From assembly GCA_046497275.1 (NCBI GenBank), contig JAWOFX010000186.1:1-32000 (forward strand): a DNA stretch of 32,000 bases. Reading direction: 5' to 3'. Both the position numbers and the translations under genes were made by a program. How positions within the stretch are numbered: the stretch's first letter is position 1; each line of letters opens with the position of its first letter. Positions 1 to 30,949 of the stretch are shown one piece after another. Source of the stretch: Promethearchaeia archaeon. GTDB lineage: Archaea > Asgardarchaeota > Lokiarchaeia > Sigyniarchaeales > SOKP01. The notes beneath the pieces were generated by a model, which worked only from the letters and a program-made list of their open reading frames with translations, made no database searches and was not told the origin of the DNA.

Positions 1-420
1 TTGGAAGCTGTGAAAAAACTCGGAAAAGATAATTCATGCTTAAAAGGAGAAACAGGAAAAGCAGTAAAAGTGATTTCTCATTTATTAAAATTTATTCCGA
101 AAAACAATGAATATAAAGTAATTTTTATGAATCGGGATATAAATGAAGTGATAAAATCACAACAGAAAATGCTCGGTGATTTCGAGAAAAAATATCCTAA
201 AGTGCTTATGAAAGCGTTTGACAAAGAAGCAAGGTCAATGAAGAAATGGGCACTCGATCAAGAAAATATCAAGTTTTTAGATCTTAATTATACGGATATA
301 ATCAACAATCCATCTCGAGAAGTGAATAAAATAATCAATTTTCTTAATGCCCCGCTTAAGAGAGAAAAAATGATAAGGGTTGTTGATCCCTCTTTATATC
401 GCTCCAAAGTTAAAAAGTAG
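1..420 (+). CDS. Sulfotransferase-family protein, C-terminal part (5' truncated by window edge)
   Basis: AVKVISHLL, YKVIFMNRDINEVIKSQQKML and DPSLYR resemble small P-loop sulfotransferase-like proteins. The ORF runs off the window start, so the TTG at 1 is not a real start call. Confidence 0.6.
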   Translation: MEAVKKLGKDNSCLKGETGKAVKVISHLLKFIPKNNEYKVIFMNRDINEVIKSQQKMLGDFEKKYPKVLMKAFDKEARSMKKWALDQENIKFLDLNYTDIINNPSREVNKIINFLNAPLKREKMIRVVDPSLYRSKVKK

Positions 421-506
421 ATAAATAGAGAATTTTCTTATTAGAATTAATATGTATGATATTTTACCCTAGAATAAAGTAAAAGTAAATAAAAAATAAG
501 AATTAT

Positions 507-1277
507 CTAATCTTGTTCTTCTGCTTCCTCTCTTCCCATTAATCTCATTACGGCGTCGGCAAGTTTATTCTGTCTTTTACTGGTGATTCCTTTAATCTTT
601 CCAACCTTTCCTAGAACTCTTTCCATGATCGCGTTCCACACAGACCCTGGCTCTCCTTTTACATCCATGAACCGATCTCGAAATACTTCAACACTAATAT
701 TTTCATAATTTTTAGCTGCTTCAGAACATTTAAAGCATAAAATGCATAAATCTTTATCCACTACTATTTCACCATCCTCGACTGAAAGCGCTCCGACAGC
801 ACATTCATCAGCAAACTCTTCAAGAACTTTCTTATCCTTTTCTTCGGATGTGATTTTTATGCTACCATCGACAACTTTTCTAACTTTGTTTCCATTTTCA
901 AGTGTTCTTACTTGCTCTTTAAATTTAGGAAGAGAGTCATTCTCCACAAGTGGGATTCTTTCTTCTCCGTTGATATAGAGTTTTAGCGTATATCCTGGAC
1001 AAACCCATGAACAGCTTCCGCACCAGATACAGCGCTCGGTATTAACGACGATTTTTTTATCCGAATCCATTTTCATTTCTTCTGGTGTACCGATTGCAGT
1101 TTTTTTGATCGGTTCATCGTAAATAGAAATCGTGACAGGACACACACGATGACAAAACCCACATTCCAAGCACTTCGATTCGTCATATTCGAGAATCATC
1201 TCGTGATTGAGCATCTTATAAACGTAATGGGTAATATTCTCGTCTACTTCGATAGTTTTTTTGGCTGGTAATGACAT
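507..1277 (-). CDS. Polyferredoxin (about 3 x [4Fe-4S]), FwdF-like
   Basis: CLECGFCHRVCP, CIWCGSCSWVCP, and a split third site (DECAVGA + CILCFKC). Confidence 0.8.
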   Translation of the reverse strand: MSLPAKKTIEVDENITHYVYKMLNHEMILEYDESKCLECGFCHRVCPVTISIYDEPIKKTAIGTPEEMKMDSDKKIVVNTERCIWCGSCSWVCPGYTLKLYINGEERIPLVENDSLPKFKEQVRTLENGNKVRKVVDGSIKITSEEKDKKVLEEFADECAVGALSVEDGEIVVDKDLCILCFKCSEAAKNYENISVEVFRDRFMDVKGEPGSVWNAIMERVLGKVGKIKGITSKRQNKLADAVMRLMGREEAEEQD

Positions 1278-2937: not shown

Positions 2938-3095
2938 ATATAATAACCAAATTGAATTTTTATGTATAAGAAAAATTACTAATAAATAAGGATAATTATT
3001 CATCTTAATAAGGGATTTGAAAAAAATATTTTTAGTTTCTTGACTTTATTCCAAGAGAACCTTGTATATTTATATAAATTTAAGTATTCCAGAAT

Positions 3096-3100
3096 GAGGT
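3096..3100 (+). promoter_or_regulatory. Shine-Dalgarno-like GAGGT upstream of ATA 3108
   Basis: Same motif and same 7-nt spacing as the GAGGT before the mvhD ATG (11932-11936). Confidence 0.55.
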
Positions 3101-3107
3101 AATAAAA

Positions 3108-3878
3108 ATAAAAAAACTAACTTTAGAAGAAGTAAATAAACTGCTATCTTATTGGAGTAATCATAATAACGAACATAAAAATGATATTAAAAAATGGATT
3201 TCTCGAATTAAACCTTCCCTATCTAAGGAATTTATAAACAAATTAGAAAAAGTAATTGAATTATTTGAAGATATGGATGAAATTTTTGAATCTATAAAAT
3301 ATAATGTTGAAAATAGCGCTAAAGAAAGAAATTTAGAAATAAAGAAACCACAAGAAATAGAACACAGAAAAAAAGAAGAAAACAAGTCAGAAAAATTTAA
3401 ATTAAAAAAGATTGGAACGATTCACACGCCATATATAGATACTGCTCCCTATCAACCTGTCAAAGAGGATCAAGCGGAATTTAAAATTACTGTGGATCCT
3501 CAATATATTGAAAGTCTTCATAAACTTGACAAATTTCGCTATATATACGTGCTTTATTATATTCATCTTGTTTCGCGAGAAATTAATGATATCGTTTCAC
3601 CTCCTTGGACAGGTGGAGCTGAGGTTGGAGCTTTTGCTAGCAGATCTCCTTTACGCCCGAATTTGATAGGATTAAGCGTAGTACAATTAAAAAAGATCGA
3701 GGGTAATAATATTTTCATAAGTTCAATAGATTGTTTTGATGGTACTCCTTTGCTTGATATTAAACCTTATATTAAAGATTTAGATTCTAAATCTGATGCG
3801 AATTATGGATGGATTGAGGATTTAGATGGATATGAACATCTTCTTCTACATATAAAGGGAATTCCGCATGATTATTAA
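3108..3878 (+). CDS. trmO: TrmO/TsaA-like SAM-binding methyltransferase with N-terminal His-rich helical extension (proposed ATA start, 256 aa)
   Basis: IGTIHTPY, GAFASRSPLRPNLIGLS and DCFDGTPLLDIKPY are TsaA motifs. The frame is open 55 codons upstream of the ATG at 3273, with GAGGT 7 nt before the ATA at 3108. Family call is firm; start codon is inferred. Confidence 0.8.
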   Translation: MKKLTLEEVNKLLSYWSNHNNEHKNDIKKWISRIKPSLSKEFINKLEKVIELFEDMDEIFESIKYNVENSAKERNLEIKKPQEIEHRKKEENKSEKFKLKKIGTIHTPYIDTAPYQPVKEDQAEFKITVDPQYIESLHKLDKFRYIYVLYYIHLVSREINDIVSPPWTGGAEVGAFASRSPLRPNLIGLSVVQLKKIEGNNIFISSIDCFDGTPLLDIKPYIKDLDSKSDANYGWIEDLDGYEHLLLHIKGIPHDY

Positions 3879-7776: not shown

Positions 7777-9867
7777 TTATGCCCCCTCTATTGTTTTATT
7801 TGCATTTAAAAAATCAAGAGTTAATTTTTGTCCGTTATATTCTATTATGGTTTGCATACTCCCAAATGTCTGATTGCAGTATGGACTTTCAAATCGCTCA
7901 TATGGTCCTAGATCGATTATTTGATCCTCCACCTTCATTTCCCCATCCCAACTTACCCGAATTTTTCCTTTAGAGGGGGAATTGTAAATGATTTCATACC
8001 CTATAGATTTTTTTGAGATTCCAATATTTGCATTCAGAATTTTGGCTATAAAATCTTCATAGGAATCGAAAGCATCATCATCAACACTTCCTAATTCAAC
8101 TATCCATGCATTTTTCTTTCCTTCCGCTCTTAGTTCATAATTGCTTTTCCACTCTGTTGGGTTATTTGAATATAAAGCTACGAAGCTGTCATTTCGCCGT
8201 CCAAATACCCAATTGTTTGATTTATTCCATTCATTAAAAGCCCAACGTGGGAAATATGCGTGTGTATATGATTTCTCTCCTAAAAATTCTTGAACTAATT
8301 CTAATATAAGCGATTGAGCGCGTCGGTCATATTGGATAATACCCACATTTTCATATAAAGTCGCACGGGGTTTCCAACCACTCGTGAATTTTTGATCACT
8401 AGCACTAAGGGCACTTGGAGAGCTAGTAAATATAGTAGCATTTCCGTCCAAGCAAGCTTGCCAGATAAGTTCTTGAAGACCATTCATTCCTTTTTGATGA
8501 TCCTGGACCCCAGACAATTGGTAATAGGGAGTTTTATATGTATAGGTGTTAGCAGTCTCGAGGGACACACCCTGAGTGATATCCTTTATTATATGACTAA
8601 AATCTTTCAGAGAAGTTCCATAAATAGTGGCTCCAATATCAAATAAATCAACAAAAGCTTCATCGTTAAATATCAATGCGGGATCTAACTCATAAGTATT
8701 CATAATTCTTAAAGAAGATTCTAATACTGGAGGAGCTGCAGGAGCAGACATTGGCCACCAAAACATAAGATCTGATTCGGTTTCATATCCAAATCCATAA
8801 TTAGGACCCTCTGAGATATCTATATTATTCCTTGATTTATGAATATGGGTATTTGTATTTGCGGTCGCATTTGCTATATCTTCTAATATTTTAGGAGTGA
8901 AATAATTCCCTGTTGCCATAAATACGGCAGCCCCGTTTTCTCCAGTAGTTATATCATCTGATCCAATACCAAGCATCAACCAAGCTGGTTCTGCAGTTGA
9001 CTCTTTTTCGGGAGGATTAGATGCGGAAGTACCTACTTGTTTTTCATCCTCAGTTCTTCCGTGGGCAGTGGCATAAAAACCTTTATAATAATTATTTGCA
9101 AAATCAAATCCGATTAAATCAATTAGCATTTCTGCTTTTTTTTGAATGGTAGTATTCTGAGCGAAATCCACCAAATTTAATAAAGCAGTTAAATCAAGGC
9201 GATAATAAATATTTGAATGCCACTCTGCAAACCCAAACTTAGCTCTCCAATCAAGCCAACGGTTCACTAAAGGAAGAGCATGTTCGATATGTTGGGATCC
9301 ATTCCATCCTGAATTAGGAAATATGGTATTAGGAAATAATTGACCAGCTAATAATTCCGCCGTATGGAATAAGATCATATGATTTTCAGTCCAAAAGATC
9401 ATCTCATCTGGACCTGATTCTGTAAACCAATACTTAAAATTTAAAATGGCATCTTTTATGCTATCATTCAAGCCAGAGGGGATATTATATTTGCCAAGAT
9501 CTAAATACATCATTCTTAGTAATGTATTCATATCAAAATCCGAACAATCTTCTCTGATATTGATTTTATCGAGGGATTGGTTGATCCTTGCTTCATTATA
9601 TTCTGTCTCATTCAGATATACTTTGGCACATTGAGCATTAAATCCATCGCTATTATTTGCTAAATCCAAATACATATCTTTACGTTCCGTAAAATTTAAA
9701 TCAGAGAGATAATACGAGGATGGATTCGCAAAATCATCAAGATCAGTATTTATCTCCCCTTCTTTAATTATACCAGACGGTTTTGGAATCAAAGTAGGTA
9801 TAAATATTATAATTGGCATAAGCACTAATATTACTGCGATAATAAGAAGTTGAATGTATTTTTTCAT
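7777..9867 (-). CDS. Membrane-anchored extracellular protein, possibly alginate-lyase/heparinase-like (alpha-toroid + beta-sandwich), 696 aa
   Basis: Single N-terminal TM helix, many NxS/T sequons, WTENH and GFAEWHSNIYY segments. ATG 9867 is preferred over TTG 9882 because GGTG lies upstream. Fold assignment is tentative. Confidence 0.45.
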   Translation of the reverse strand: MKKYIQLLIIAVILVLMPIIIFIPTLIPKPSGIIKEGEINTDLDDFANPSSYYLSDLNFTERKDMYLDLANNSDGFNAQCAKVYLNETEYNEARINQSLDKINIREDCSDFDMNTLLRMMYLDLGKYNIPSGLNDSIKDAILNFKYWFTESGPDEMIFWTENHMILFHTAELLAGQLFPNTIFPNSGWNGSQHIEHALPLVNRWLDWRAKFGFAEWHSNIYYRLDLTALLNLVDFAQNTTIQKKAEMLIDLIGFDFANNYYKGFYATAHGRTEDEKQVGTSASNPPEKESTAEPAWLMLGIGSDDITTGENGAAVFMATGNYFTPKILEDIANATANTNTHIHKSRNNIDISEGPNYGFGYETESDLMFWWPMSAPAAPPVLESSLRIMNTYELDPALIFNDEAFVDLFDIGATIYGTSLKDFSHIIKDITQGVSLETANTYTYKTPYYQLSGVQDHQKGMNGLQELIWQACLDGNATIFTSSPSALSASDQKFTSGWKPRATLYENVGIIQYDRRAQSLILELVQEFLGEKSYTHAYFPRWAFNEWNKSNNWVFGRRNDSFVALYSNNPTEWKSNYELRAEGKKNAWIVELGSVDDDAFDSYEDFIAKILNANIGISKKSIGYEIIYNSPSKGKIRVSWDGEMKVEDQIIDLGPYERFESPYCNQTFGSMQTIIEYNGQKLTLDFLNANKTIEGA

Positions 9868-10143: not shown

Positions 10144-11292
10144 CTACGTTTTCTCTAATTCCATCTCTCTAATTGCCTTACCACTTCTAAATGGGGTATC
10201 TTCAACCGATTCTCCTGCGCGATACTTAAATTCCTTTTGAAACTGCTCATTTAGAGACTGAAAAATTAGCGAAAGTGGTATATTCATAGGACAATTATTC
10301 GCACAATTTCCACATTCTACACATCGATCAGCAACATGGGCAATGCGCGTTAACTGATAACTTACATTATCAATATTTTTTTCCTTCCGCTTTTTCTGAA
10401 GGATACAATCGACGCAATAACATACTGGACAGCCCCTAATACACATTCCGCACATAGTGCATTTCTGAAGCTGTTCCAGTTTTTCCTTTTGAGATAATTT
10501 ATTCCATTCTTCGAGATCCTTCGCTCGTTTTTCTTCTGCAGTCTTAAGAATCTCAGCCATTTTGTCTTCATGTGCTTTTTTAATATCACTTGGTAGTTTT
10601 TCAGCCTTAATTCCTGATTTATCGATTAATTCGCCTGCAGCATCACTATGAACTTTTAAGATAATATTTTCATCTTCAATAGGAATTCCAATATCACTAA
10701 TAGAAATGTCTGCGATTATAGGTTGCTTTCGAATACATCTCGAGCAATTATCAGCAATTTCGATTCCTACTTGTTTTGTCTTTCCATCATCAAGTAAAAA
10801 TAATAATCCATCATCCGTGATTTTCTCCTTTACGATTTTTGTGGTATCAAGATCCTTCTCGCTTCGAAGTTCCCGTGAGACATTTAATGTCATTCCGCGA
10901 TCTTCAATTCCAATGATAAATAAGTTATCTAAATTCACTTGTTTTATTTTGCTCAATTCTATTAATGCTCTTGTATCGCAAGGTCGAGCTATTAAAGCGA
11001 TTTTCTCATTTTTCGCTCCATCTGCGCTTGCATGTAAGAATTTAGAGGCAGAATCCGTTCGGGCGTATCCATAGGTAATTAAATTAGACACGGGAAAACT
11101 TTCAATCTCCTCGGGTTTTTCCCATAATTTTGGAGAGATTGAAAATCGATCTACTTCACCGGATTTTTTACTTACTTTTACTTCTGCGCCGATTATTTTA
11201 TCAACCATTCCCTCTTTCAATAAGGTCTTTAACAATGTAGGGAAGTCTTTTTCTTTTATGAGATATTCTGCTTGTGTTTCCACAGCTTTCAA
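10144..11292 (-). CDS. FdhB/FrhB-family (F420-binding beta-subunit-like) protein with C-terminal 2x[4Fe-4S]
   Basis: ARPCDTRALIEL, CSRC, CTMCGMCIRGCPVCYCVDC and RCVECGNCANNCP; TTG start. Confidence 0.75.
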   Translation of the reverse strand: MKAVETQAEYLIKEKDFPTLLKTLLKEGMVDKIIGAEVKVSKKSGEVDRFSISPKLWEKPEEIESFPVSNLITYGYARTDSASKFLHASADGAKNEKIALIARPCDTRALIELSKIKQVNLDNLFIIGIEDRGMTLNVSRELRSEKDLDTTKIVKEKITDDGLLFLLDDGKTKQVGIEIADNCSRCIRKQPIIADISISDIGIPIEDENIILKVHSDAAGELIDKSGIKAEKLPSDIKKAHEDKMAEILKTAEEKRAKDLEEWNKLSQKEKLEQLQKCTMCGMCIRGCPVCYCVDCILQKKRKEKNIDNVSYQLTRIAHVADRCVECGNCANNCPMNIPLSLIFQSLNEQFQKEFKYRAGESVEDTPFRSGKAIREMELEKT

Positions 11293-11430
11293 CTCGTAAT
11301 CTTTATAATTTTATAATTTTGAAAAATAATTTATGGTGAGAAACATAAATTCTTAGTTCATATACGTTTCGTTTCTATTATTTTCCAATTTGATTTTTTA
11401 TTTTTTAATTTTATTAAATACTTTATGTGT

Positions 11431-11502
11431 TTAAATGGGGCTTCCATTTCTTCAACAAGATTCTCATTTTTTCAACCTTGTCTCATTAGGACACACATTT
11501 AA
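11431..11502 (-). promoter_or_regulatory. SECIS element, eukaryote-like (AUGA / apical A-run / GA)
   Basis: Minus-strand RNA: UUAAAUG..CCUA-AUGA-GACAAGGUU-GAAAAAAUGAG-AAUCUUGUU-GA-AGAAAUGG..CAUUUAA. Contains a 9-bp upper stem (two G.U), an A6 loop, a tandem G.A core (11483-11486 / 11452-11453) and a 7-bp lower helix. Starts 2 nt after the stop of a UGA-containing gene. Confidence 0.9.
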
Positions 11503-11504
11503 TT

Positions 11505-11924
11505 TTATGAGGAGCTTTCTTTTAAAGGATTTCCACCCAATCCTTTAATAGTATTATAGAATTCTGTGGCTACTTCTTTAAACCTTGCGCCTTCAGCAGA
11601 ACTGCAAAATTCCATTCTAAGTCTCTCAGGTGCGATTCCTGCTGAATTTAACACATCTTTTAGATATTCTACGCTACGATACGCAAATTTATTTCCTGTC
11701 TCGTAATCACACTCTCCTGGATGTCAGCCGACGATTAATACCCCATCAGAACCCCTTCCGAATGCGCGCATAACAAGATCTGCTCCAACTCGTCCGGTAC
11801 ATGGAACAATAATTATTCTATATGCTGTTGGATATTGGGCGCGAATTGTGCCTGCCATATCAGCTCCTCCGTATCCTCATTTTCTACAACAAAATGCGAT
11901 TATCTTAATTCCATTATTTGTCAT
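11505..11924 (-). CDS. mvhD: Selenocysteine-containing MvhD/VhuD ([2Fe-2S] hydrogenase delta subunit), 139 aa, 2 Sec
   Basis: Absent from the ORF track. IAFCCRK-U-GYGGADMAG (TGA 11877-11879, codon 16), CTGRV, GVLIVG-U-HPGECDY (TGA 11724-11726, codon 67), ERLRMEFCSSAEG; ends TAA at 11505-11507. Confidence 0.95.
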
Positions 11925-11931
11925 TTTATTT

Positions 11932-11936
11932 ACCTC
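11932..11936 (-). promoter_or_regulatory. Shine-Dalgarno GAGGT for mvhD in the 13-nt hdrA-mvhD gap
   Basis: TAA-AGAGGTAAATAAA-ATG on the minus strand. Confidence 0.7.
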
Positions 11937-11937
11937 T

Positions 11938-13896
11938 TTACTCTGCAATAGGTAGTAATGCATCAATAAATGCATCATATTGATTATCTTTATAATGTGC
12001 TAATTCTATAGCTTTTGAAGGACACAAGGATTCACAAATTCCGCATCCTCTACAGCTAATGATATCCACTTCTATTAAGTTTTTTCCATTGATTGAAATC
12101 GCACCGTAAGGACATGCCTCAACACATTTATAACATTTCGCACATCGTTCATCATTTGGTTGAGCTCGAATTAGCTCTATTATGTATTCCTCGTTTTTCA
12201 TCGGGATACTTGCTTCAGAGGCTGCTCCTTTTGCTTGACTTACCGTAAGGTCTATTGATTTTTGGGCTTGACAAGAACCCGCAATATAGATTCCCGGAGT
12301 TTTTGTTGATATGGGATCTAATCGTGGATGTGCTTCTTTTAGAAAGCCATCCGGAGTCTTTTCCAAATTCATCACTTTAGCAATTTCATCTGTACCTTTA
12401 GATGGAAGTGATGCTGAAGAGAGTATCACCATATCAAATTCTTTTTCAATGATTGTATCTGTTCCCACCGGTTCTAATTTAACTATGAGATTTTTTGTTT
12501 CGGGATCTTCTTGTATATCTCCCACCATTCCTTTTACAAATAATATGCCTTGATTTCGTGCCCGCCGATAATATTCTTCATACATCTTACCACCAGCACG
12601 AATATCTATATAGCATACCATTATCTCAGAATCGGGATACTCTGATTTGATAAGCTTGGAATTTTTTATCGAAAGATTGCAGCACACCACGCTACAATAT
12701 TCATGTGTTTTTAAACTTCTCGATCCCACGCAATTAATGAAGAGTATCCTTTTAGGTCGTTCTCCATCAGATGGTCGTTTTAAATGTCCTAGTGTTGGTC
12801 CGTTTGGTGCGATTATTCGTTCCAATTGTACTTGTGTTATAACGTTATCATATATTCCATACCCATAATCATCTCCTTGGTAAAGATCCCAACCAGTTGC
12901 AATTATTATTGTTCCTACTTCTAACTCAACAATTTCATCTTGTTGACTAAAATCAATCGATTCATTATCACAAGCGTCTACACATGCAAAACATTCTACA
13001 CATGAATCTCGTTCAATGTTAGAAATTGCAGGAACTGCTTGCGCAAATGCAATATCAATACATTTTCGAGCAGAAAGGTTCTCGTCAAAATAGTTTGGCA
13101 CATATATAGGACATACATCAGTACAAGATCCGCACCCAGTTCAAAGTGTTTCATTAACATATCGCGCTTTGCGTTTTACTTTCACGTTAAAATTCCCAAT
13201 ATATCCATCTACATCTACAACTTCACTATATGATAAAATTTCGACGTTTTTATTACGCTCAACTTCTAGCATTTTAGGTCCCAAGATTCAGATACTGCAA
13301 TCATCAGTTGGAAATGTTCTATCAAGTTGAGCCATTCTTCCTCCTATGGTAGTCTCTTTCTCCACTAAGTACACTTTATATCCCTCATTTGCTAAATCTA
13401 GTGCAGCATTTATTCCCCCAATTCCACCACCGATTACTAGAGCCTCTGGTTTTACGGATACTTTTTTCGTTGGAATATCTTCTAATAACCTAGACCTTCC
13501 AATACCTGCTTTAACTAATTCAATTGCTTTCTCTGTTGCCTCCTCTCGTACATCGGGATCTTGATGAACATAAGAACATTGCTCTCTTATATTAACAAAT
13601 TCAAGATGTCTTGGTGGCAAACCTGCTTCTTTCAAAATATCCATAAATACTGGTTCATGAGTAAGAGGAGTTCAAGCTGCTAAAACTATTCTATCAAAAC
13701 CTTTTTCTGCGATCTGTTCTTTCATGAATTCTGCGCCACCAGACGTACACATGTTTAGATATTCGTATGCGTTTACATTCTCTTCTTTATCAATCTCTTC
13801 GACAATCTTCGGTACATCGAGTATTCCTGCCACGTTTACACCTCAGCGACAGATAAAAGCTCCTACGTTTTCCTTGGTCTGTTCATCATCAGACAT
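11938..13896 (-). CDS. hdrA: Selenocysteine-containing heterodisulfide reductase subunit A, 652 aa, 4 Sec
   Basis: One frame joins track ORFs 13288-13644 and 11938-13101 plus upstream sequence. FICR-U-GVNVAG (TGA 13843-13845, codon 18), LAA-U-TPLTHEP (13672-13674, codon 75), FPTDDCSI-U-ILGPKM (13288-13290, codon 203), ETL-U-TGCGSCTDVCP (13141-13143, codon 252). Also GGGIGG FAD motif, CVGSR, YCSVVCC and C-terminal 2x[4Fe-4S]. Confidence 0.95.
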
Positions 13897-13997
13897 TTTT
13901 CTCACTCTTAGAAAGTAATACCTCCTAATATCTTGAGATTTACTTGTTTTTGATTTATAATTATTATTAGTATTTATTTTAATTGGTAAAATTAAGA

Positions 13998-22066: not shown

Positions 22067-24001
22067 TTATTTTTTCCCCCCTTTTTTCTTTGGTGGTTCT
22101 AAATTTCCAATAACAAAATCCAAACCCAAACTTTTGAGAGTTTCTTCAGTAGGAATACCTGTTTCTGTATCCCATCCTCGAGCTTCATAATACCCACTCA
22201 ATAATTTTTGATATCCTTTTTCCTCTAGGGTTACTCCTTTAGCAGGTCCTTTAGTATGTGCTTCTTTGAAGAATCGCTCAGGAGGATGGTCATCTGCTCT
22301 TGTCCATCCTTCACGGATATTAAAGCACTTCGATAAGGTTACTATTGCATTTCCTCGTTCTTTCATAGAATCTCCAGTATGAGGGATGCCAGTTACTAAT
22401 TCATAGACTTTCGCCATCTCATCATCATCCTCATAGACTCCACGAGTGAATTTACAAATAATATAGGAATCAATAACGGCATAGATATCCTCTACATCAA
22501 TTATTGCGTTTCCTCGTTCAACGGGTTTATCATAGGCAAACCTATCAAACTTTCCTTTAGCATCAAGTCCATAAGCTCCATTTCGTAAGTGGCACGCTCC
22601 GCGAATTGAAACACTCTCTCCCACGGCAAAAGAAGTCATGCCATGAAGATCGAATGCAGGCATTTCCAATCCTTTAATATTCATTGCATGAAAACTAGCA
22701 TTTTCGCGTCCCATTTCTTCTAAACGTTTTCCTGCCATTAAAGTTCCATCACCAAAAACTTCCCCAGCAAAACCCTCTCCTCGTATCATCTCTTCGGTAA
22801 ATCGGACTAGATTTTTTGTAGAGCCAAATGGTAATTCATATCCCAAGTCTTTTTTAGTGATAATTCCCTCTTCAAATAAATCACACGCCATAGCCGCAGT
22901 AACGCCACCTGATATTCCATCAATGCCTAAATCATCACATAATTCAATACATTTAAACACAGTAGGCCAATCAGCATTACCACAAGCTGTACCAAAAGAA
23001 TATAAAAGTTCTATATCTGTACTTGCAACTAAATTTGGATAATCAGGATGGTTTTTTGATACTCTTGCTAAATGATCGCAAGCAACGGAGCATTGAGAAC
23101 ATGCTACTTTCTTTACGACCCAATCTTCATTAAGAGTTTCTCCTGTATACTCACCATTCGTTATTTTTTCCCAAGTGCCCTCCTTATAATTATACGTGGG
23201 CATCATTCCAAGTTTATTATAACTCGTAAGTCCAGCTGGGGTTCCTAAATCTCGATATTTCGAAGTTGCAGGTCCGTTAGCAACTTTAATTAGTTTTTTA
23301 GCTAATTGATAAAATTCTTTAGGTTTTGCTACAGAAATAGGTTTCGTGCCTCTAAAGGCAATAGCTTTTAGGTTTTTGGAGCCCATTACCGTTCCCATAC
23401 CAGTTCTACCCGCCTGACGATTTCGATCATTAGTGATACATCCCAATCGACTCATCCTCTCTCCACCGGGACCGATTGCCATCACAGCTAATCTTTGATC
23501 TTGAAATTCTTCTCTTAGTATTTCTTCTGTATCCCAACATCCCTTGCCCCACAATAAATCTTCGCACGACATGCTATATCTATCATCATCATCCACAACA
23601 AATACAACCGGTTCTGGTGCTTTACCCTTAAAAACTATCATATTAACACCAGCACGTCTTGCTTGGGCACCAACTGATCCCGAGGAAATAGACATACCGA
23701 ACATATTTGTTAGAGGTGATTTTGCAAACACACCATATTTTGAACTTGTTGGTAAAATGGTTCCCGGAAATGGACCTATTGCCCAAACGAAAATATTATC
23801 AGGACTTAAAGGATCAATACCTGGTTCTAATTCATCCCATAATACTTTTGCTCCAAAACCATAACCACCTATCCAGTTTGCGAGAAAATCATTTGATAAT
23901 TTAGTTTCTGTTATCTTTCCCGTAGTTAAGTCGACATCGAGTCTTGTCTGCGTGTAACCCTTTACTTCATCTGGAATTGTTAAATTTTTTGCTTCGGTCA
24001 T
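22067..24001 (-). CDS. aor: Tungsten-dependent aldehyde:ferredoxin oxidoreductase
   Basis: AGRTGMGTVMGSKNLKAI, CSQCSVAC, CDDLGID, RGACHLR, YYEARGWD. ATG 24001 is preferred over GTG 24013 because a GTGTGA SD-like motif lies upstream. Confidence 0.93.
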   Translation of the reverse strand: MTEAKNLTIPDEVKGYTQTRLDVDLTTGKITETKLSNDFLANWIGGYGFGAKVLWDELEPGIDPLSPDNIFVWAIGPFPGTILPTSSKYGVFAKSPLTNMFGMSISSGSVGAQARRAGVNMIVFKGKAPEPVVFVVDDDDRYSMSCEDLLWGKGCWDTEEILREEFQDQRLAVMAIGPGGERMSRLGCITNDRNRQAGRTGMGTVMGSKNLKAIAFRGTKPISVAKPKEFYQLAKKLIKVANGPATSKYRDLGTPAGLTSYNKLGMMPTYNYKEGTWEKITNGEYTGETLNEDWVVKKVACSQCSVACDHLARVSKNHPDYPNLVASTDIELLYSFGTACGNADWPTVFKCIELCDDLGIDGISGGVTAAMACDLFEEGIITKKDLGYELPFGSTKNLVRFTEEMIRGEGFAGEVFGDGTLMAGKRLEEMGRENASFHAMNIKGLEMPAFDLHGMTSFAVGESVSIRGACHLRNGAYGLDAKGKFDRFAYDKPVERGNAIIDVEDIYAVIDSYIICKFTRGVYEDDDEMAKVYELVTGIPHTGDSMKERGNAIVTLSKCFNIREGWTRADDHPPERFFKEAHTKGPAKGVTLEEKGYQKLLSGYYEARGWDTETGIPTEETLKSLGLDFVIGNLEPPKKKGGKK

Positions 24002-24050
24002 TTCTATATTCACACTTAATTATTGGTTCTAGTTTATTAAAATATTTATC

Positions 24051-26234: not shown

Positions 26235-27344
26235 TTATTTTGATTTTCTAGAAATCATTTTCCTGAAGAAATTCTTTCTTTTTTCTCTCCAATCAGTCTC
26301 TTTATCTCTGGGAGGGATATATTGATCAATATATTTTTGTGATAATAAAGTCTCTATCAATTTTTGCCCTGGTTCCGTTCTGGTAATAATTATCGAATAA
26401 TTTTCCGGTGCACCTGTGGATCCTACACTTATATCAGAAAATCTACCAGCAAAATCATCACAGACTTTGCAATGGGATCTTACAGCAGGGTCTAAATTCT
26501 TAATATTAACTTCTAAGGTATCACCTTTCTCACTTTCAACAAAAAAGTTCTTCTTTATATATGTTTTTTTAATATCTGAAGGTTTTATTCCTTTATCCTT
26601 CCTTATTAACTCATAAAGCGTGGAATACTCAAAGTTTTCAAAACAGAATAAACTGATAATATATTTGACAACATGAGCAGGTTTTATACTGAGCAATTTC
26701 ATTTTCCTTAAGGCTTTTACTTGACAAGGCGTTCCTACAAAAGCCACACGGATTTGGTCAATGTCATAAATACCTTTTTCTTTTTGAATTTGTAAGGGAA
26801 TATTGTACAAGTCTTTTAATGGTAAAACTTGACTAGATATAGAATATCGTGTTCCGGCAGATTTTAAGAGTTCCTCTTTGTCAAATATTAATTTTGGTTT
26901 TGGGTGAAGTTCCTCATCATATTCAGAAACAACAGCAGCATCGATTTTATTTTTCTCGAATAGATAAGATAAGATAGTAGTAACTATTCCTCCATCTTGT
27001 CCAACCTTATTTATTGCTTCTCTTGTTGTTTTTGCAGCGATTATATCAATTATATGCCCTAATTCATCTTGTATTTCAAGATTTTCGACTAATAATTCCT
27101 CCAACGTGTCTGTTTGAGGACAAATATAATAACAAAGTCCACATTCTGTGCAATTATCTTCATTTTTTTTTGATTTGAATTTAGGAATATATTCATCTAA
27201 CTTAATCACATCAAAGCTTTGGCTTTCACAATAAGCTACACATGCCCCACATGCGCAACATAAATCTTTTTGAATTACTTCCTTATCTAAATCTTTAAAT
27301 GTTTTTACTTCCTCTTGCTCACTATTAGATAATGATTCTGTCAT
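26235..27344 (-). CDS. Coenzyme F420 hydrogenase/dehydrogenase beta-subunit family protein with N-terminal 2x[4Fe-4S]
   Basis: CCACGACVAYC, CTECGLCYYICP, QDGGIVT, AGTRYS, VGTPCQ, CFENF, CKVCDDF, DISVGS. Confidence 0.88.
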   Translation of the reverse strand: MTESLSNSEQEEVKTFKDLDKEVIQKDLCCACGACVAYCESQSFDVIKLDEYIPKFKSKKNEDNCTECGLCYYICPQTDTLEELLVENLEIQDELGHIIDIIAAKTTREAINKVGQDGGIVTTILSYLFEKNKIDAAVVSEYDEELHPKPKLIFDKEELLKSAGTRYSISSQVLPLKDLYNIPLQIQKEKGIYDIDQIRVAFVGTPCQVKALRKMKLLSIKPAHVVKYIISLFCFENFEYSTLYELIRKDKGIKPSDIKKTYIKKNFFVESEKGDTLEVNIKNLDPAVRSHCKVCDDFAGRFSDISVGSTGAPENYSIIITRTEPGQKLIETLLSQKYIDQYIPPRDKETDWREKRKNFFRKMISRKSK

Positions 27345-27353
27345 TTTTTATCC

Positions 27354-27818
27354 TTATTCCTTTTTTAGTTCAATCTTTCCAAATTTTTTGGGAAAAGATG
27401 AGGGACCTAAATTTGAAATAATCTCATTAAATTCCCGTATTAATTCAGCAAATTGTTTTCCTTCACTAGCTGAAATCCATTCTAATCGAAATCTATTAGG
27501 ATTAATTCCTATTTTTTTCAATAAAGTTTTCATATGATTCATTCTTTCTCTTGCTAATTCATTACCACTAATATAATGGCAATCACCGATATGACATCCT
27601 GTAACTAAAACACCATCTATACCATTTTTAAATGCAGTTAAAATAAATGAGGGTTCTACCCTTCCTGAACACATCACTCGTACTATTCTGATACTTGGAG
27701 GATATTGAAATCTTGAAACTCCCGCTAAGTCTGCTCCGGCATAAGAACACCAGTTACAGCAGAAAACTAAAATTTCTGGAAGAAAGGCTTCTTTCTCTTT
27801 AATTTTTGTTTTACTCAT
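27354..27818 (-). CDS. mvhD: MvhD, all-cysteine form
   Basis: FCCNWCSYAGADLAG, MCSGRV, GCHIGDCHY, WISASEG. Confidence 0.95.
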   Translation of the reverse strand: MSKTKIKEKEAFLPEILVFCCNWCSYAGADLAGVSRFQYPPSIRIVRVMCSGRVEPSFILTAFKNGIDGVLVTGCHIGDCHYISGNELARERMNHMKTLLKKIGINPNRFRLEWISASEGKQFAELIREFNEIISNLGPSSFPKKFGKIELKKE

Positions 27819-27847: not shown

Positions 27848-30800
27848 TTATTCTAAATTAATGCCTGGTAATAATTCAATCTGTTTTCTAATCTGAAAAT
27901 TACTGAAATGTCTCTGATTAATAGCCCCTAATGGACATTCAGCCGCACATGCCCCGCATCCTTTACAGAGTGCTTTAATTACATGTGCTTTTTTCTCATT
28001 GACAGTATAAAGACCAATCTGTTTAGTAATTTCTAACATTTCTATCGCATTGTAAGGACATATCTCTGCACATGCACCACATCCTATACATTTCTCCTCA
28101 TTCACATAACAAGTTATCCCCTCCGTCTCGACTTCTCCTTTAACCATTAAAGAAGCGGCTCTCCCGGCAGCTCCATATGCTTGTGTTATTGCTTCATCTA
28201 TCCATTTTGGCCAGTGTGCTCCGCCACATAAGAAAATCCCATCAGTTGCAAAATCAACTGGACGAAGTTTAACATGAGCCTCCAAAAAGAATCCATCTTT
28301 AGTGGTAGGGACTTTAAGCATTTTAGCGAGTTCATTAGTTCCCCTCCCCGGAATTTCAGGGGTTGCAAGAACTAATAGGTCTGTATCATATTCAACTTCA
28401 CAATTCGCACCAAGATTATTATAATTTATGTGAAATGCTCCATTATTCTCTGAAATCGTTATTTCTTTGATGGATTTATATCTTTCAAAAGAAACTTTTT
28501 TCCTTAAATCACGCCATAATCGCTCAGCATTCAAGTCAGAAAATTGTAATTCTCTATATAGAATATGGATATGTGCTTCTGGATTGATATCCAAGAGTTT
28601 TTCAATATTTTTAAGCGCTACTTTACAACAAATATTACTACAATAGGTTTTTATAGTCTCACCTTGATTAAATTCATTCCGTCTTTGATCCACACATAAT
28701 ATAATTGTAGCATCATTAAAACCTGGTACTTTTGTATCTTGCGTAGCTTCTAATTCATTTTGAGTGAAAACTTTATTTGGATGCTTTTTAATAGCATCTT
28801 TCCATCTATCTGTATCTGATTGACTAGTTCCCGTAGCCACAATGATAGTTCCAACTATGAAATCAAAAGTGTCTGATTCATTTTGGACATTTTGGGTTTT
28901 AATTTCATAATTTCCTACGTATCCGGTTATATCTGTGATTATAGAGCTCGTTAATAAATGAACATTTGATTTTGTCTTTAAATCATTAATATCCTTCAAA
29001 ATATCTTGTTTATGCATAGGAATATCATATAAATCAATGAATTCTAAAGAATTCCCTCCTAAACTTGGCTTTTTCTCAACAAGATATAATTCAAATCCTT
29101 GATTAGCAAGATTATGAGCTGCCACTATACCAGCAATTCCGCCACCTATTATCATAGCTGATTTTTCAACCTTAACTTTGATTTTTTCAAGAGGTTGAAG
29201 ATTAACGACTTTAGCCAAATACATTCTGATTAAGTCGCAAGCTTTTTTAGTCGCTTTTTCAGGCTCATTATGGTGTACCCAAGAATCTTGATCTCTAATA
29301 TTAACCAATTCAAATAAAAATGGATTTAATCCAGCTTCTTTTAAAGTATTTCTAAATAATGGTTCATGAGTTCTTGGAGTACATGATGCTACCATAAATC
29401 TATTTAATTTATATTCTTTAATCATTTCCTTGATTCTCTCTTGAGAATCCGAACTGCATGAATACATATTTTCTTCGGCATGTGTTACATAAGGAAGCTT
29501 AGAAACATAATCAACCACCGCTGAAGTATCAACAACCCCCGCGATATTTATTCCACATTGGCATACAAGAACACCTACTCTTGGTTCATCATCTATACCT
29601 ACAGGAATTTCTGGGGGATAAACAACCTCTTTTATATTATTAAATCTAACGGGATTGAGTTTTTCACTTATTTTGGCGGCGCAAGCACTTCCCTCAGCAA
29701 CCGCTACAGGTATATCTTTTGGTTTCCTTGAATAACCAGTAAAAAATATGTTATTTTCTTCTGATTTAATCAATCCCTCTTCATTAATAAAACCAAATTC
29801 ATTATAGTCAACATTAATGCAATCTAATAAATCATAATAAGAATCATTTGGAAATAAAGCACTTGCTAATACAACCATATCATATTCATCATTTTCAACT
29901 TTATTTTTATCAATATCTTCATAAAATAAAGTCAATTTACCATTTTGCGGATTCTCCTTAACCAAGGAAACTCTACCATTAACATAATTTACTCCGTATT
30001 CCTCTTTACTTTTTACTATAAATTCATAAAAATTCTTACCTTTTGCTCTTATCTCTGTATTGAATATAGCACATTCAGTATCTGGAGCATGTTCTTTAGC
30101 CACGATTGCTTGTTTAGCAGAGGACATACAACAAATTGAAGAACAATATTTTTTACAATCTGGATGATGGAAATCTCGCGATCCAACACATTGTAGAAAA
30201 GCAATCTTATGAGGATGTTTTTTATCATCGAAACATATTAATTCTCCACCTGTTGGCCCATTAGCAGATAATAATCTTTCAAATTGCATACTTGAAAGAA
30301 CATTTGGATTTGAACCCGCCAGTAGAGAATAAAACTCTGGGTACTGCTGTTCATAACCAGTGGCTATAACGATCGCTCCAACATTTATATCAATTTCTTT
30401 GGGTTTTTGAGTGAAATCAATCGCGTCTGCTTTACACCCTGTAGCACATAGTTTACAAATTCCATGATTCAAATAAAGACATTTGTTTTCATCAATTAAA
30501 TAGATTGGAGGAACTGAAGAGGGAAATGAGATATGAGCAGCACTACGAGTAGTTAAGTGAGCATCAAATTCACTTGGAATTCCTTTTACGGGACAAATTG
30601 TAGCACAATCTCCACAACCCTTACATTTTGTCTCATCAACATACCTTGGTTTTCGAATTACTTTCACATTATAATTTCCAGCCGTTCCATTAATTTTTTC
30701 TACATGTGAATAGGTTAGTAGCTCAATATTAGGATTTCTATATACTTCCACCATTTTTGGAGCTAAAATACACAAAGAACAATCTAACGTAGGAAATGTC

Positions 30801-30949
30801 TTATCTAATTGTGCCATTGTACCTCCAATTGTAGGCTTTTTTTCTACTAAGTATACTTTAAACCCTAATTCAGTTAGATCTAAAGAAGTTTGGATACCCG
30901 CTATACCAGCACCTATCACTAGAACGGAACTTGATAATGCTTCTGTCAT
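27848..30949 (-). CDS. hdrA: Large two-module HdrA-family flavoprotein, all-cysteine form (1033 aa)
   Basis: Two FAD motifs (GAGIAG, GGGIAG), FPTLDCSLC, CKGCGDCATICP, CVGSR, internal VCQCGINIAG / ASCTPRTHEP, C-terminal 2x[4Fe-4S]. Confidence 0.93.
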   Translation of the reverse strand: MTEALSSSVLVIGAGIAGIQTSLDLTELGFKVYLVEKKPTIGGTMAQLDKTFPTLDCSLCILAPKMVEVYRNPNIELLTYSHVEKINGTAGNYNVKVIRKPRYVDETKCKGCGDCATICPVKGIPSEFDAHLTTRSAAHISFPSSVPPIYLIDENKCLYLNHGICKLCATGCKADAIDFTQKPKEIDINVGAIVIATGYEQQYPEFYSLLAGSNPNVLSSMQFERLLSANGPTGGELICFDDKKHPHKIAFLQCVGSRDFHHPDCKKYCSSICCMSSAKQAIVAKEHAPDTECAIFNTEIRAKGKNFYEFIVKSKEEYGVNYVNGRVSLVKENPQNGKLTLFYEDIDKNKVENDEYDMVVLASALFPNDSYYDLLDCINVDYNEFGFINEEGLIKSEENNIFFTGYSRKPKDIPVAVAEGSACAAKISEKLNPVRFNNIKEVVYPPEIPVGIDDEPRVGVLVCQCGINIAGVVDTSAVVDYVSKLPYVTHAEENMYSCSSDSQERIKEMIKEYKLNRFMVASCTPRTHEPLFRNTLKEAGLNPFLFELVNIRDQDSWVHHNEPEKATKKACDLIRMYLAKVVNLQPLEKIKVKVEKSAMIIGGGIAGIVAAHNLANQGFELYLVEKKPSLGGNSLEFIDLYDIPMHKQDILKDINDLKTKSNVHLLTSSIITDITGYVGNYEIKTQNVQNESDTFDFIVGTIIVATGTSQSDTDRWKDAIKKHPNKVFTQNELEATQDTKVPGFNDATIILCVDQRRNEFNQGETIKTYCSNICCKVALKNIEKLLDINPEAHIHILYRELQFSDLNAERLWRDLRKKVSFERYKSIKEITISENNGAFHINYNNLGANCEVEYDTDLLVLATPEIPGRGTNELAKMLKVPTTKDGFFLEAHVKLRPVDFATDGIFLCGGAHWPKWIDEAITQAYGAAGRAASLMVKGEVETEGITCYVNEEKCIGCGACAEICPYNAIEMLEITKQIGLYTVNEKKAHVIKALCKGCGACAAECPLGAINQRHFSNFQIRKQIELLPGINLE

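Follow-up and report, generated by a model that had tools for sequence, protein, structure and literature searches.

Which signal would allow a lokiarchaeial cell to translate two adjacent genes that are interrupted by in-frame UGA codons? The question is raised by positions 1 to 32,000 of contig JAWOFX010000186.1 (GenBank assembly GCA_046497275.1; the whole 32,000-nucleotide stretch is referred to as the window), from a Promethearchaeia archaeon of the Lokiarchaeia, in which hdrA, mvhD (vhuD), a 74-nucleotide (nt) RNA element, and a gene for an FrhB-like protein all lie on the minus strand (Table 1). The hdrA open reading frame (ORF), from 13905 to 11938, is open only with readthrough of four TGA codons; mvhD starts 13 nt past the hdrA stop, includes two more TGA codons, and ends with TAA at 11507-11505. 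The AUGA motif of the element begins 18 nt past this stop. A preliminary description of the locus placed a eukaryote-type selenocysteine insertion sequence (SECIS) behind mvhD in this archaeon, and the comparisons reported here agree. We conclude on comparative sequence evidence, and with a probability of about 0.9, that the element is the SECIS of the Lokiarchaeia hdrA-mvhD selenoprotein pair, and that it is of the eukaryote-like kind published as lokiSECIS or Asgard type I.

The element behind hdrA and mvhD

The AUGA, the 9-position stem, the GA, and the other strings listed in the preliminary description are all found where it placed them, on the minus strand. Its apical AAAAAA loop is indeed A-rich, although the actual loop, GAAAAAAUGAG, is 11 nt long and does not consist of AAAAAA only. 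Aligned with paralogs in the window that have only cysteine (Cys) codons, both UGA codons of mvhD match Cys in the paralog at 27354-27818, and all four of hdrA match Cys in that at 27848-30949.

Mariotti et al. (Mol Biol Evol 33:2441, 2016; PMC4989117) define the lokiSECIS in their text by an AUGA before a 9-bp stem and a GA (rarely AA) after it, with an 11-nt loop that opens with adenines and whose last G is ultraconserved and usually follows an A, and describe one element after vhuD as serving the tandem of an hdrA with several selenocysteine (Sec) codons and a two-Sec vhuD. The present element has every one of these text-defined features and differs in no defining one, as is also true of the text-defined type I features, and its kind is therefore already known. 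Huang, Xiao, and Zhang (ISME J 18:wrae111, 2024; PMC11227280) describe, in the text of their paper, a type I eSECIS-like structure across more than 400 Asgard genomes, and the element conforms to it (GA_[G/A]A as the core, 7 to 15 bp in the upper stem with at most two mismatches, and 8 to 20 nt in the apical loop). The hdrA and frhD/mvhD genes are always neighbors and nearly always share one element according to the same text, with AUGA_GA and AAAAA as the norm in Lokiarchaeia. The preliminary description was thus right that similar elements had been described in Lokiarchaeota, as far as the texts of these two papers go.

It had also proposed covariation across hdrA-mvhD loci as a check, and this is pronounced. 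A search with the MvhD protein against 121 genomes of the same order gave homologs in 120, with exactly two TGA codons in all but three of the approximately 150 matches listed. The element is kept in 29 of the 30 best loci (58 to 71% protein identity, two TGA codons each), 11 to 21 nt past the stop; the named relatives are metagenome-assembled genomes of the Promethearchaeota or Promethearchaeia, the current name of the Lokiarchaeota lineage. Pairing was scored on two alignments, one made with MAFFT and the other fitted to a covariance model. Helix II is 93 to 99% paired over the two, and its eight inner pairs are 99.1% paired, with compensatory changes on both sides at seven of the eight; its covariation score is 0.35 to 0.37, compared with 0.19 for shuffled alignments and 0.10 or less with slid partners. 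The first G of helix II can form only a G.U pair, with U11454, and in 15 of the 29 sequences this position, the first of the stem after AUGA, is left unpaired, and so we regard it as the variable fourth pair of the quartet rather than as a Watson-Crick pair.

The U, G, and A of the AUGA core are invariant in the 29 orthologs, and the leading A is present in at least 90% (it is UUGA in locus L013). The core GA is invariant as well, as are AAA and the final AG of the apical loop, which is 11 or 12 nt long in the orthologs and occasionally 13. Within the 5' internal loop, C12 of the alignment is invariant and T13 nearly so.

Chance does not account for the element. A strict pattern (AUGA, at least eight of nine pairs, an 11-nt A-rich loop ending in G, and GA) occurs six times in the 3.85-Mb genome, compared with zero or one time in the reversed genome and in five locally shuffled genomes, and the remaining copies likewise sit behind UGA-containing genes, including a second hdrA-mvhD pair on contig C109. 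The strict motif has no second copy in the window, where the sole other loose match on this strand (at 12372) is inside hdrA and has a loop that is not A-rich. A covariance model built from the orthologous hdrA-mvhD elements, designated R1, scores the element at 84.9 bits (E 1e-19), and this is its sole strong match in the genome; among sampled genomes of the same family, 76 of 101 have R1 matches, mostly one and up to three copies per genome, and R1 finds no element in 19 genomes of other families of the order. The other SECIS types of this genome escape R1, which is too specific to its own family. The weaker R1 matches, at C60:22093-22155 (E 0.07; inside a 151-codon ORF), on C104 (E 0.33), and on C1 (E 3), are not SECIS elements.

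Several points weigh against the assignment. Rfam SECIS_1 (RF00031; gathering score 35 bits) gives the element no score, and over the whole genome it has one unrelated match of 17.1 bits, on contig C95; "eukaryote-type" thus denotes a resemblance at the level of the motif and not a model match. No Rfam family matches the window at gathering thresholds, and a search of 11300-11620 at E values up to 10 returned no SECIS family, with only chance-level matches to SNORD79, potC, bxd_6, and SNORD108. The minimum free energy (MFE) z-score is only -2.33 for the 86-nt stretch of the preliminary description, and the orthologous sequences are relatives, so that the conservation counts are not independent. 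The assembled contigs of RNA libraries considered below cannot prove a single transcript or exclude carry-over of DNA. The function in Sec insertion is a prediction. We note that, according to the text of Mariotti et al. (PMC4989117), lokiSECIS elements were missed by the existing eukaryotic and archaeal SECIS models.

Architecture of the base

The conserved base of the element is predicted by folding and alignment to be a three-way junction of helix I, the kink-turn (k-turn) arm, and helix III, spanning 11498-11425. The preliminary description had closed the element with a lower helix, UUAAAUG/CAUUUAA, and had set its 3' boundary at 11431, which cuts off the closing strand ACACAU (11430-11425). 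When this strand is included, in an 80-nt stretch from 11501 to 11422, the MFE structure and the centroid are both the three-way junction, at -16.9 kcal/mol (z = -3.63); a fold constrained to the UUAAAUG/CAUUUAA helix is less stable (-15.8 compared with -16.9/-16.2 kcal/mol for the three-way fold). In this copy, the 5' strand of helix I could also pair in a register shifted by one base (UGUGUGU), and helix III can be extended to AAAUGG/CCAUUU.

Helix III is predicted unaided by RNAalifold; 99% of it is paired, and in locus L021 one U-A pair is replaced by A-U. Over a set of 107 unique elements, a hairpin of at least 4 bp starting no more than 8 nt from the core GA is present in 106, compared with 9% of shuffled flanks, a count that overstates independence because the sequences are related and mostly come from one gene family; the 107, of more than one SECIS type and gene family, show 37 distinct stems, and nearly every loop has GC in it. 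Helix I was counted as only 86 to 87% paired because MAFFT and the covariance model misalign some of the 3' strands. Read from the sequences directly, five loci have changes on both sides of helix I: AUGUUU/AACAU in L007, AUGUUC/GAGCAU in L011, AUGUGC/GCACAU in L021, UUGUGU/ACACAA in L031, and UGUGUUG/CAACACA in L013.

The same data bear on whether the element is instead a SECIS with a simple two-helix, eukaryote-style fold, closed by UUAAAUG/CAUUUAA, in which the 3' hairpin and the ACACAU pairing are incidental. RNAfold does return exactly this helix as the MFE structure of the 86-nt stretch (-15.8 kcal/mol), its strands are complementary in this copy, and the inner AUG/CAU pairs are possible in 27 to 28 of the 29 orthologs. 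These inner pairs, however, overlap the two other conserved helices, and the four outer pairs (UUAA/UUAA) are unpaired, gapped, or absent in most orthologs, leaving the helix 70.6% paired overall; many loci have AUGUGU immediately after the stop codon and therefore no UUAA. The change in CCAU in L021 is compensated within AUGG and not in the 5' AUG, and the both-side changes in helix I, the unaided prediction of the 3' hairpin, and the stability of the fold with the full 3' strand likewise speak for the three-way base. A second class of hdrA-mvhD elements, type 2, has the same three arms in different letters (CCGA...AUGA-stem-GA C...ACCAU-(loop with GCA)-AUGGU...UCGG), with an invariant GAC after helix II and a helix III pair, 54/64, that covaries (AU 13, UA 6, and UG 2). 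We therefore consider the two-helix fold improbable.

The three-way base is the only part of the element that may exceed the published descriptions. A third helix, hairpin, or three-way junction is not mentioned in the texts of Mariotti et al. (2016), Huang et al. (2024), or a 2026 review (PMC13188914), figures and supplements aside, and, with the same reservation, the lokiSECIS text describes neither the closing helix I nor the 3' mini-hairpin that the present element has. Huang et al. state in their text that across families there are no highly conserved nucleotides in either the internal loop or the lower stem; in the present hdrA-mvhD family, in contrast, the flanks AUGUGU, CU, GAAGAAAUGG, GC, CCAU, and ACACAU are strongly conserved and structured. 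Compared with eukaryotic SECIS form 1 (RF00031), the upper helix is shorter (nine positions), and a third helix is present on the 3' side of the internal loop. The element is also probably located between the cistrons of a prokaryotic operon, in a host in which the PF01248 search found no SBP2.

Like the euryarchaeal SECIS of Methanococcales and Methanopyrus, the element is located 3' of vhuD, the gene being orthologous in both. Mariotti et al. (PMC4989117) note in their text that AUGA and GAC/AAC flank the main stem of the methanococcal VhuD SECIS, which the invariant GAC of the type 2 elements recalls. On inspection, the present fold lacks the two-helix stem, the GAA_A bulge, and the G-C-rich upper helix of the euryarchaeal GAA_A SECIS. 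A GAA does precede helix III, but it is specific to type 1, and no paired lower stem surrounds it. The reading of helix III and this GAA as a relic of the euryarchaeal element was rejected as a general one because neither type 2 nor the other elements have GAA.

The core further resembles the k-turn (Huang and Lilley 2013, as cited in the text of PMC4989117) and the k-junction, the latter a motif named in work from the Lilley laboratory. The likeness, seen here from the letters alone, consists of UGA and GA strands capable of tandem G.A pairs beside a helix, where a third one joins the junction; the 5'-strand loop is 6 nt plus AU and not a 3-nt bulge.

Table 1. Coordinates of the hdrA-mvhD locus and of the parts of the SECIS element (positions in the window; RNA letters are those of the minus strand)
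Feature	Position	Strand	Remarks
hdrA (HdrA/HdrA2-like heterodisulfide reductase subunit A)	11938..13905	-	655 codons; NCBIfam HdrA2, 753 bits
In-frame UGA codons of hdrA (n = 4)	first bases 13845, 13674, 13290, 13143	-	
mvhD/vhuD (FlpD family)	11505..11924	-	139 codons; Pfam FlpD, 155 bits; NCBIfam VhuD, 140 bits
In-frame UGA codons of mvhD (n = 2)	first bases 11879, 11726	-	
Whole SECIS element (lokiSECIS, hdrA-vhuD type 1)	11425..11498	-	74 nt; predicted three-way junction
Helix I, 5' strand AUGUGU	11493..11498	-	pairs with 11430-11425
5' internal loop GUCCUA	11487..11492	-	unpaired in predicted fold
AUGA, 5' half of SECIS core (k-turn-type quartet)	11483..11486	-	directly before GACAAGGUU
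Helix II, 5' strand GACAAGGUU	11474..11482	-	9 positions
Apical loop GAAAAAAUGAG	11463..11473	-	11 nt; A-rich start, AG at end
Helix II, 3' strand AAUCUUGUU	11454..11462	-	
GA, 3' half of SECIS core	11452..11453	-	
Helix III, 3' mini-hairpin AUGG-AAGCC-CCAU	11435..11447	-	strands 11447-11444 and 11438-11435
Linkers of helix III	AGAA 11451-11448; UUAA 11434-11431	-	
Helix I, 3' strand ACACAU	11425..11430	-	beyond the extent in the preliminary description
UUAAAUG, 5' strand of the lower helix of the preliminary description	11496..11502	-	partner CAUUUAA 11437-11431; complementary here, pairing not conserved
FrhB/FdhB-like iron-sulfur protein, next gene 3'	10144..11292	-	382 codons, no in-frame UGA; Pfam FrhB_FdhB_C and Fer4 families

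Decoding, possible readers, and other elements of the genome

As a SECIS, the element would lie on the same mRNA as hdrA and mvhD, 3' of all six UGA codons, and would let SelB-GTP-Sec-tRNA(Sec) decode these as Sec and not as stop. One element would act over both cistrons, with distances from the first base of the UGA to the AUGA of 240 and 393 nt for mvhD and of 1657, 1804, 2188, and 2359 nt for hdrA. The likely recognition surface comprises the AUGA...GA core, which would form tandem sheared G.A pairs and a k-turn-like kink, and the A-rich apical loop held nine positions above it. The textbook drawing of the eukaryotic element sets the core between two coaxial helices; here it would instead be set in the three-way junction, with helix III, the short hairpin with a GC loop, coming on the 3' side after the core GA and before the closing helix I. 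Candidates for the binding factor would be L7Ae, L30e, SelB, or another protein.

The host genome, which is 98.9% complete, codes for SepSecS (486 bits), a PSTK-like protein (173 bits), and a SelD with one in-frame TGA (C114:629-1420). SelB is of the short archaeal type, with 472 residues, the archaeal domain III aSelB_III, and no bacterial-type C-terminal extension. A tRNA-Sec is found at 49.4 bits and spans 119 nt, compared with the 91 positions of the model, which would fit an intron, as in Loki. The tRNA-Sec match is seen at the ends of two contigs (C33:11-129 and C165:63-181), and these probably overlap because both ends carry it; the tRNA-Sec would therefore lie between SelB (C165:3437-4855) and SepSecS (C33:2126-3427).

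The L7Ae domain PF01248 is present in only two small ORFs, named L7Ae (contig C43) and L30e (contig C83) by NCBIfam, and this PF01248 search of the genome found no SBP2-like protein, as the preliminary description had anticipated; the text of Mariotti et al. (PMC4989117) likewise reports no SBP2 in the genome studied there. Reading of the element by L7Ae/L30e or SelB is compatible with the gene content, and L30 or an unknown protein was already raised as a reader by Mariotti et al. in the text of PMC4989117.

Roles other than Sec decoding are very improbable. A generic stability, processing, or termination hairpin, located between cistrons or at the 3' end of an mRNA, would suit an AT-rich spacer between two genes, where hairpins are common, but the unpaired AUGA, GA, AAA, and AG are invariant while the stem letters vary freely, which is unexpected of a stability hairpin, no oligo-U tract follows the element directly, RNA-library contigs read through it, and the motif is tied to genes with in-frame UGA codons in this genome and in its relatives. 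Archaeal L7Ae binds many k-turns, and an L7Ae-binding k-turn RNA with another job, such as a C/D-box-like small RNA or a translational operator of the FrhB-like gene, would be in keeping with the weak SNORD79 match (18.1 bits, E 2.5), which reflects the shared UGA...GA signature of k-turns; this match is, however, far below the 47-bit gathering score, the sequence has no RUGAUGA C box (only AAUGAGA), CUGA D box, or guide region, and the orthologous loci differ in their downstream gene, whereas the element is always behind mvhD.

The genome and its relatives contain further SECIS-like elements. Type 2 hdrA-mvhD elements occur on contig C109 of this genome and at 22 further loci. In two groups of them (loci L151-L170 and L129-L150), the stop codon (UAG or UGA) is inside the 5' internal loop, between CCGA and AUGA, and the 5' strand of the closing helix, CCGA, is therefore coding sequence; in some type 2 loci the UGA within the AUGA core may itself be the stop. 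The C109 element (C109:18297-18331, minus strand; locus L067) sits behind the second gene pair, an hdrA with three UGA codons (691-2673) and an mvhD with two (about 230-688), both on the minus strand, and its flanks differ (CCUCC...AUGA...GA CUCCCUUGCGAAGGGAG...GGAGG). The stop of this mvhD may also be a UGA, because the frame meets UGA directly before the AUGA core.

Other hairpins of the lokiSECIS pattern lie behind small ORFs. Contig C185 has two on the plus strand (8705-8739 and 9275-9309), 570 nt apart and each directly behind a small ORF (2329-2787 and 3064-3342 in locus L069) in which the reading frame continues as far as the UGA in the AUGA core; each is accompanied by a 3' mini-hairpin (ACGG-UGCGU-CCGU and CAGG-UUGCG-CCUG), and the first ORF has an internal UGA (..NSTU TTFFCG..). 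Neither ORF has a significant Pfam family, with one chance-level match (E 0.088). On contig C100 (58478-58512, minus strand), a hairpin lies 21 nt past a 66-codon ORF (235-435, minus strand, in locus L066) of hydrophobic, membrane-like appearance with one in-frame UGA (..EPSGU AYIM..), a candidate small selenoprotein; it too has no significant Pfam family, with one chance-level match (E 0.098). The hairpin at C167:631-665 (minus strand; locus L068) is behind a tiny zinc-ribbon-like ORF (CxxC...CxxC) that ends in ..FKU followed by UAA, and a C-terminal Sec is a possibility there. Read by eye, a longer, type II-like element lies 3' of selD (C114, about 300-628, minus strand), with AUGA...ministem GCAAU/AUUGC...GA, after which come a small hairpin (CACC-CGCAA-GGUG) and, to close it, a helix of UUGAUGAC/GUCAUCAA.

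Operon context and implications

The preliminary description placed the element in a 3' untranslated region. It is indeed just downstream of mvhD, but the term is possibly too narrow because contigs from RNA libraries cross the element and continue into the FrhB-like gene that comes next, whose start codon (11292) is 132 nt past the end of the element (11425). The stretch is present in salt-lake metatranscriptome libraries of several studies. One contig of 3830 nt in run X2 (study P2) covers 10173-13980, and overlapping contigs in run X3 (study P3) cover 10163-13980, with that at 10805-13439 spanning the element; contigs of two studies thus bridge hdrA, mvhD, the element, and the FrhB-like gene, although strand and transcript ends are not provable from such contigs. 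A DNA run extends past both ends, where the RNA libraries are without contigs. Run X11 has no contig over 11288-11581, and this uncovered part carries no evidential weight. The element may be intercistronic in an RNA of about 3.8 kb rather than part of a terminal 3' untranslated region.

We note that RNA contigs of three studies end at about 13960-13990, 55 to 85 nt upstream of the hdrA start, and that those of two studies end at about 10163-10173, still within the FrhB-like gene but close to its 3' end. These are possible boundaries of a three-gene operon transcript; the common 5' end is only a weak hint because the loose ends carry adapter or T-rich letters.

The window also contains a Cys-only paralogous module on the minus strand, which parallels the Sec-containing hdrA-mvhD-frhB-like module. 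Its order is an HdrA-like protein of 1033 residues with duplicated or rearranged HdrA segments (27848-30949), the Cys MvhD-like protein (27354-27818), and a 369-codon ORF (26235-27344, minus strand). The ORF at 22067-24013 was considered as the Cys paralog of hdrA and ruled out, having no similarity; the paralog is that at 27848-30949.

The element confirms published work on eukaryote-like SECIS elements in Asgard archaea, in which a single copy can serve the whole hdrA-vhuD pair. What the locus adds is a cleanly delimited element of 74 nt with strong covariation, together with complete Sec machinery in a nearly complete genome. The operon-spanning RNA contigs suggest that the signal operates from within an RNA of several cistrons, bridging as much as 2.4 kb and both a stop and a start codon. 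The three-way base changes the choice of bait RNA or of reporter insert in the hunt for the archaeal SECIS reader. A bolder proposal, which we put forward tentatively and consider somewhat unlikely as it stands, is that the lokiarchaeial SECIS is an obligate three-way junction and not a shortened eukaryotic stem-loop, its k-turn-type core and A-loop arm being clamped by helix I and by helix III, in whose loop GC(R) is nearly always present, with helix III as a second recognition determinant. If this were true, SelB or the archaeal SECIS-binding factor could, for example, dock at helix III, which would also be a structural intermediate missing from the published two-helix models.

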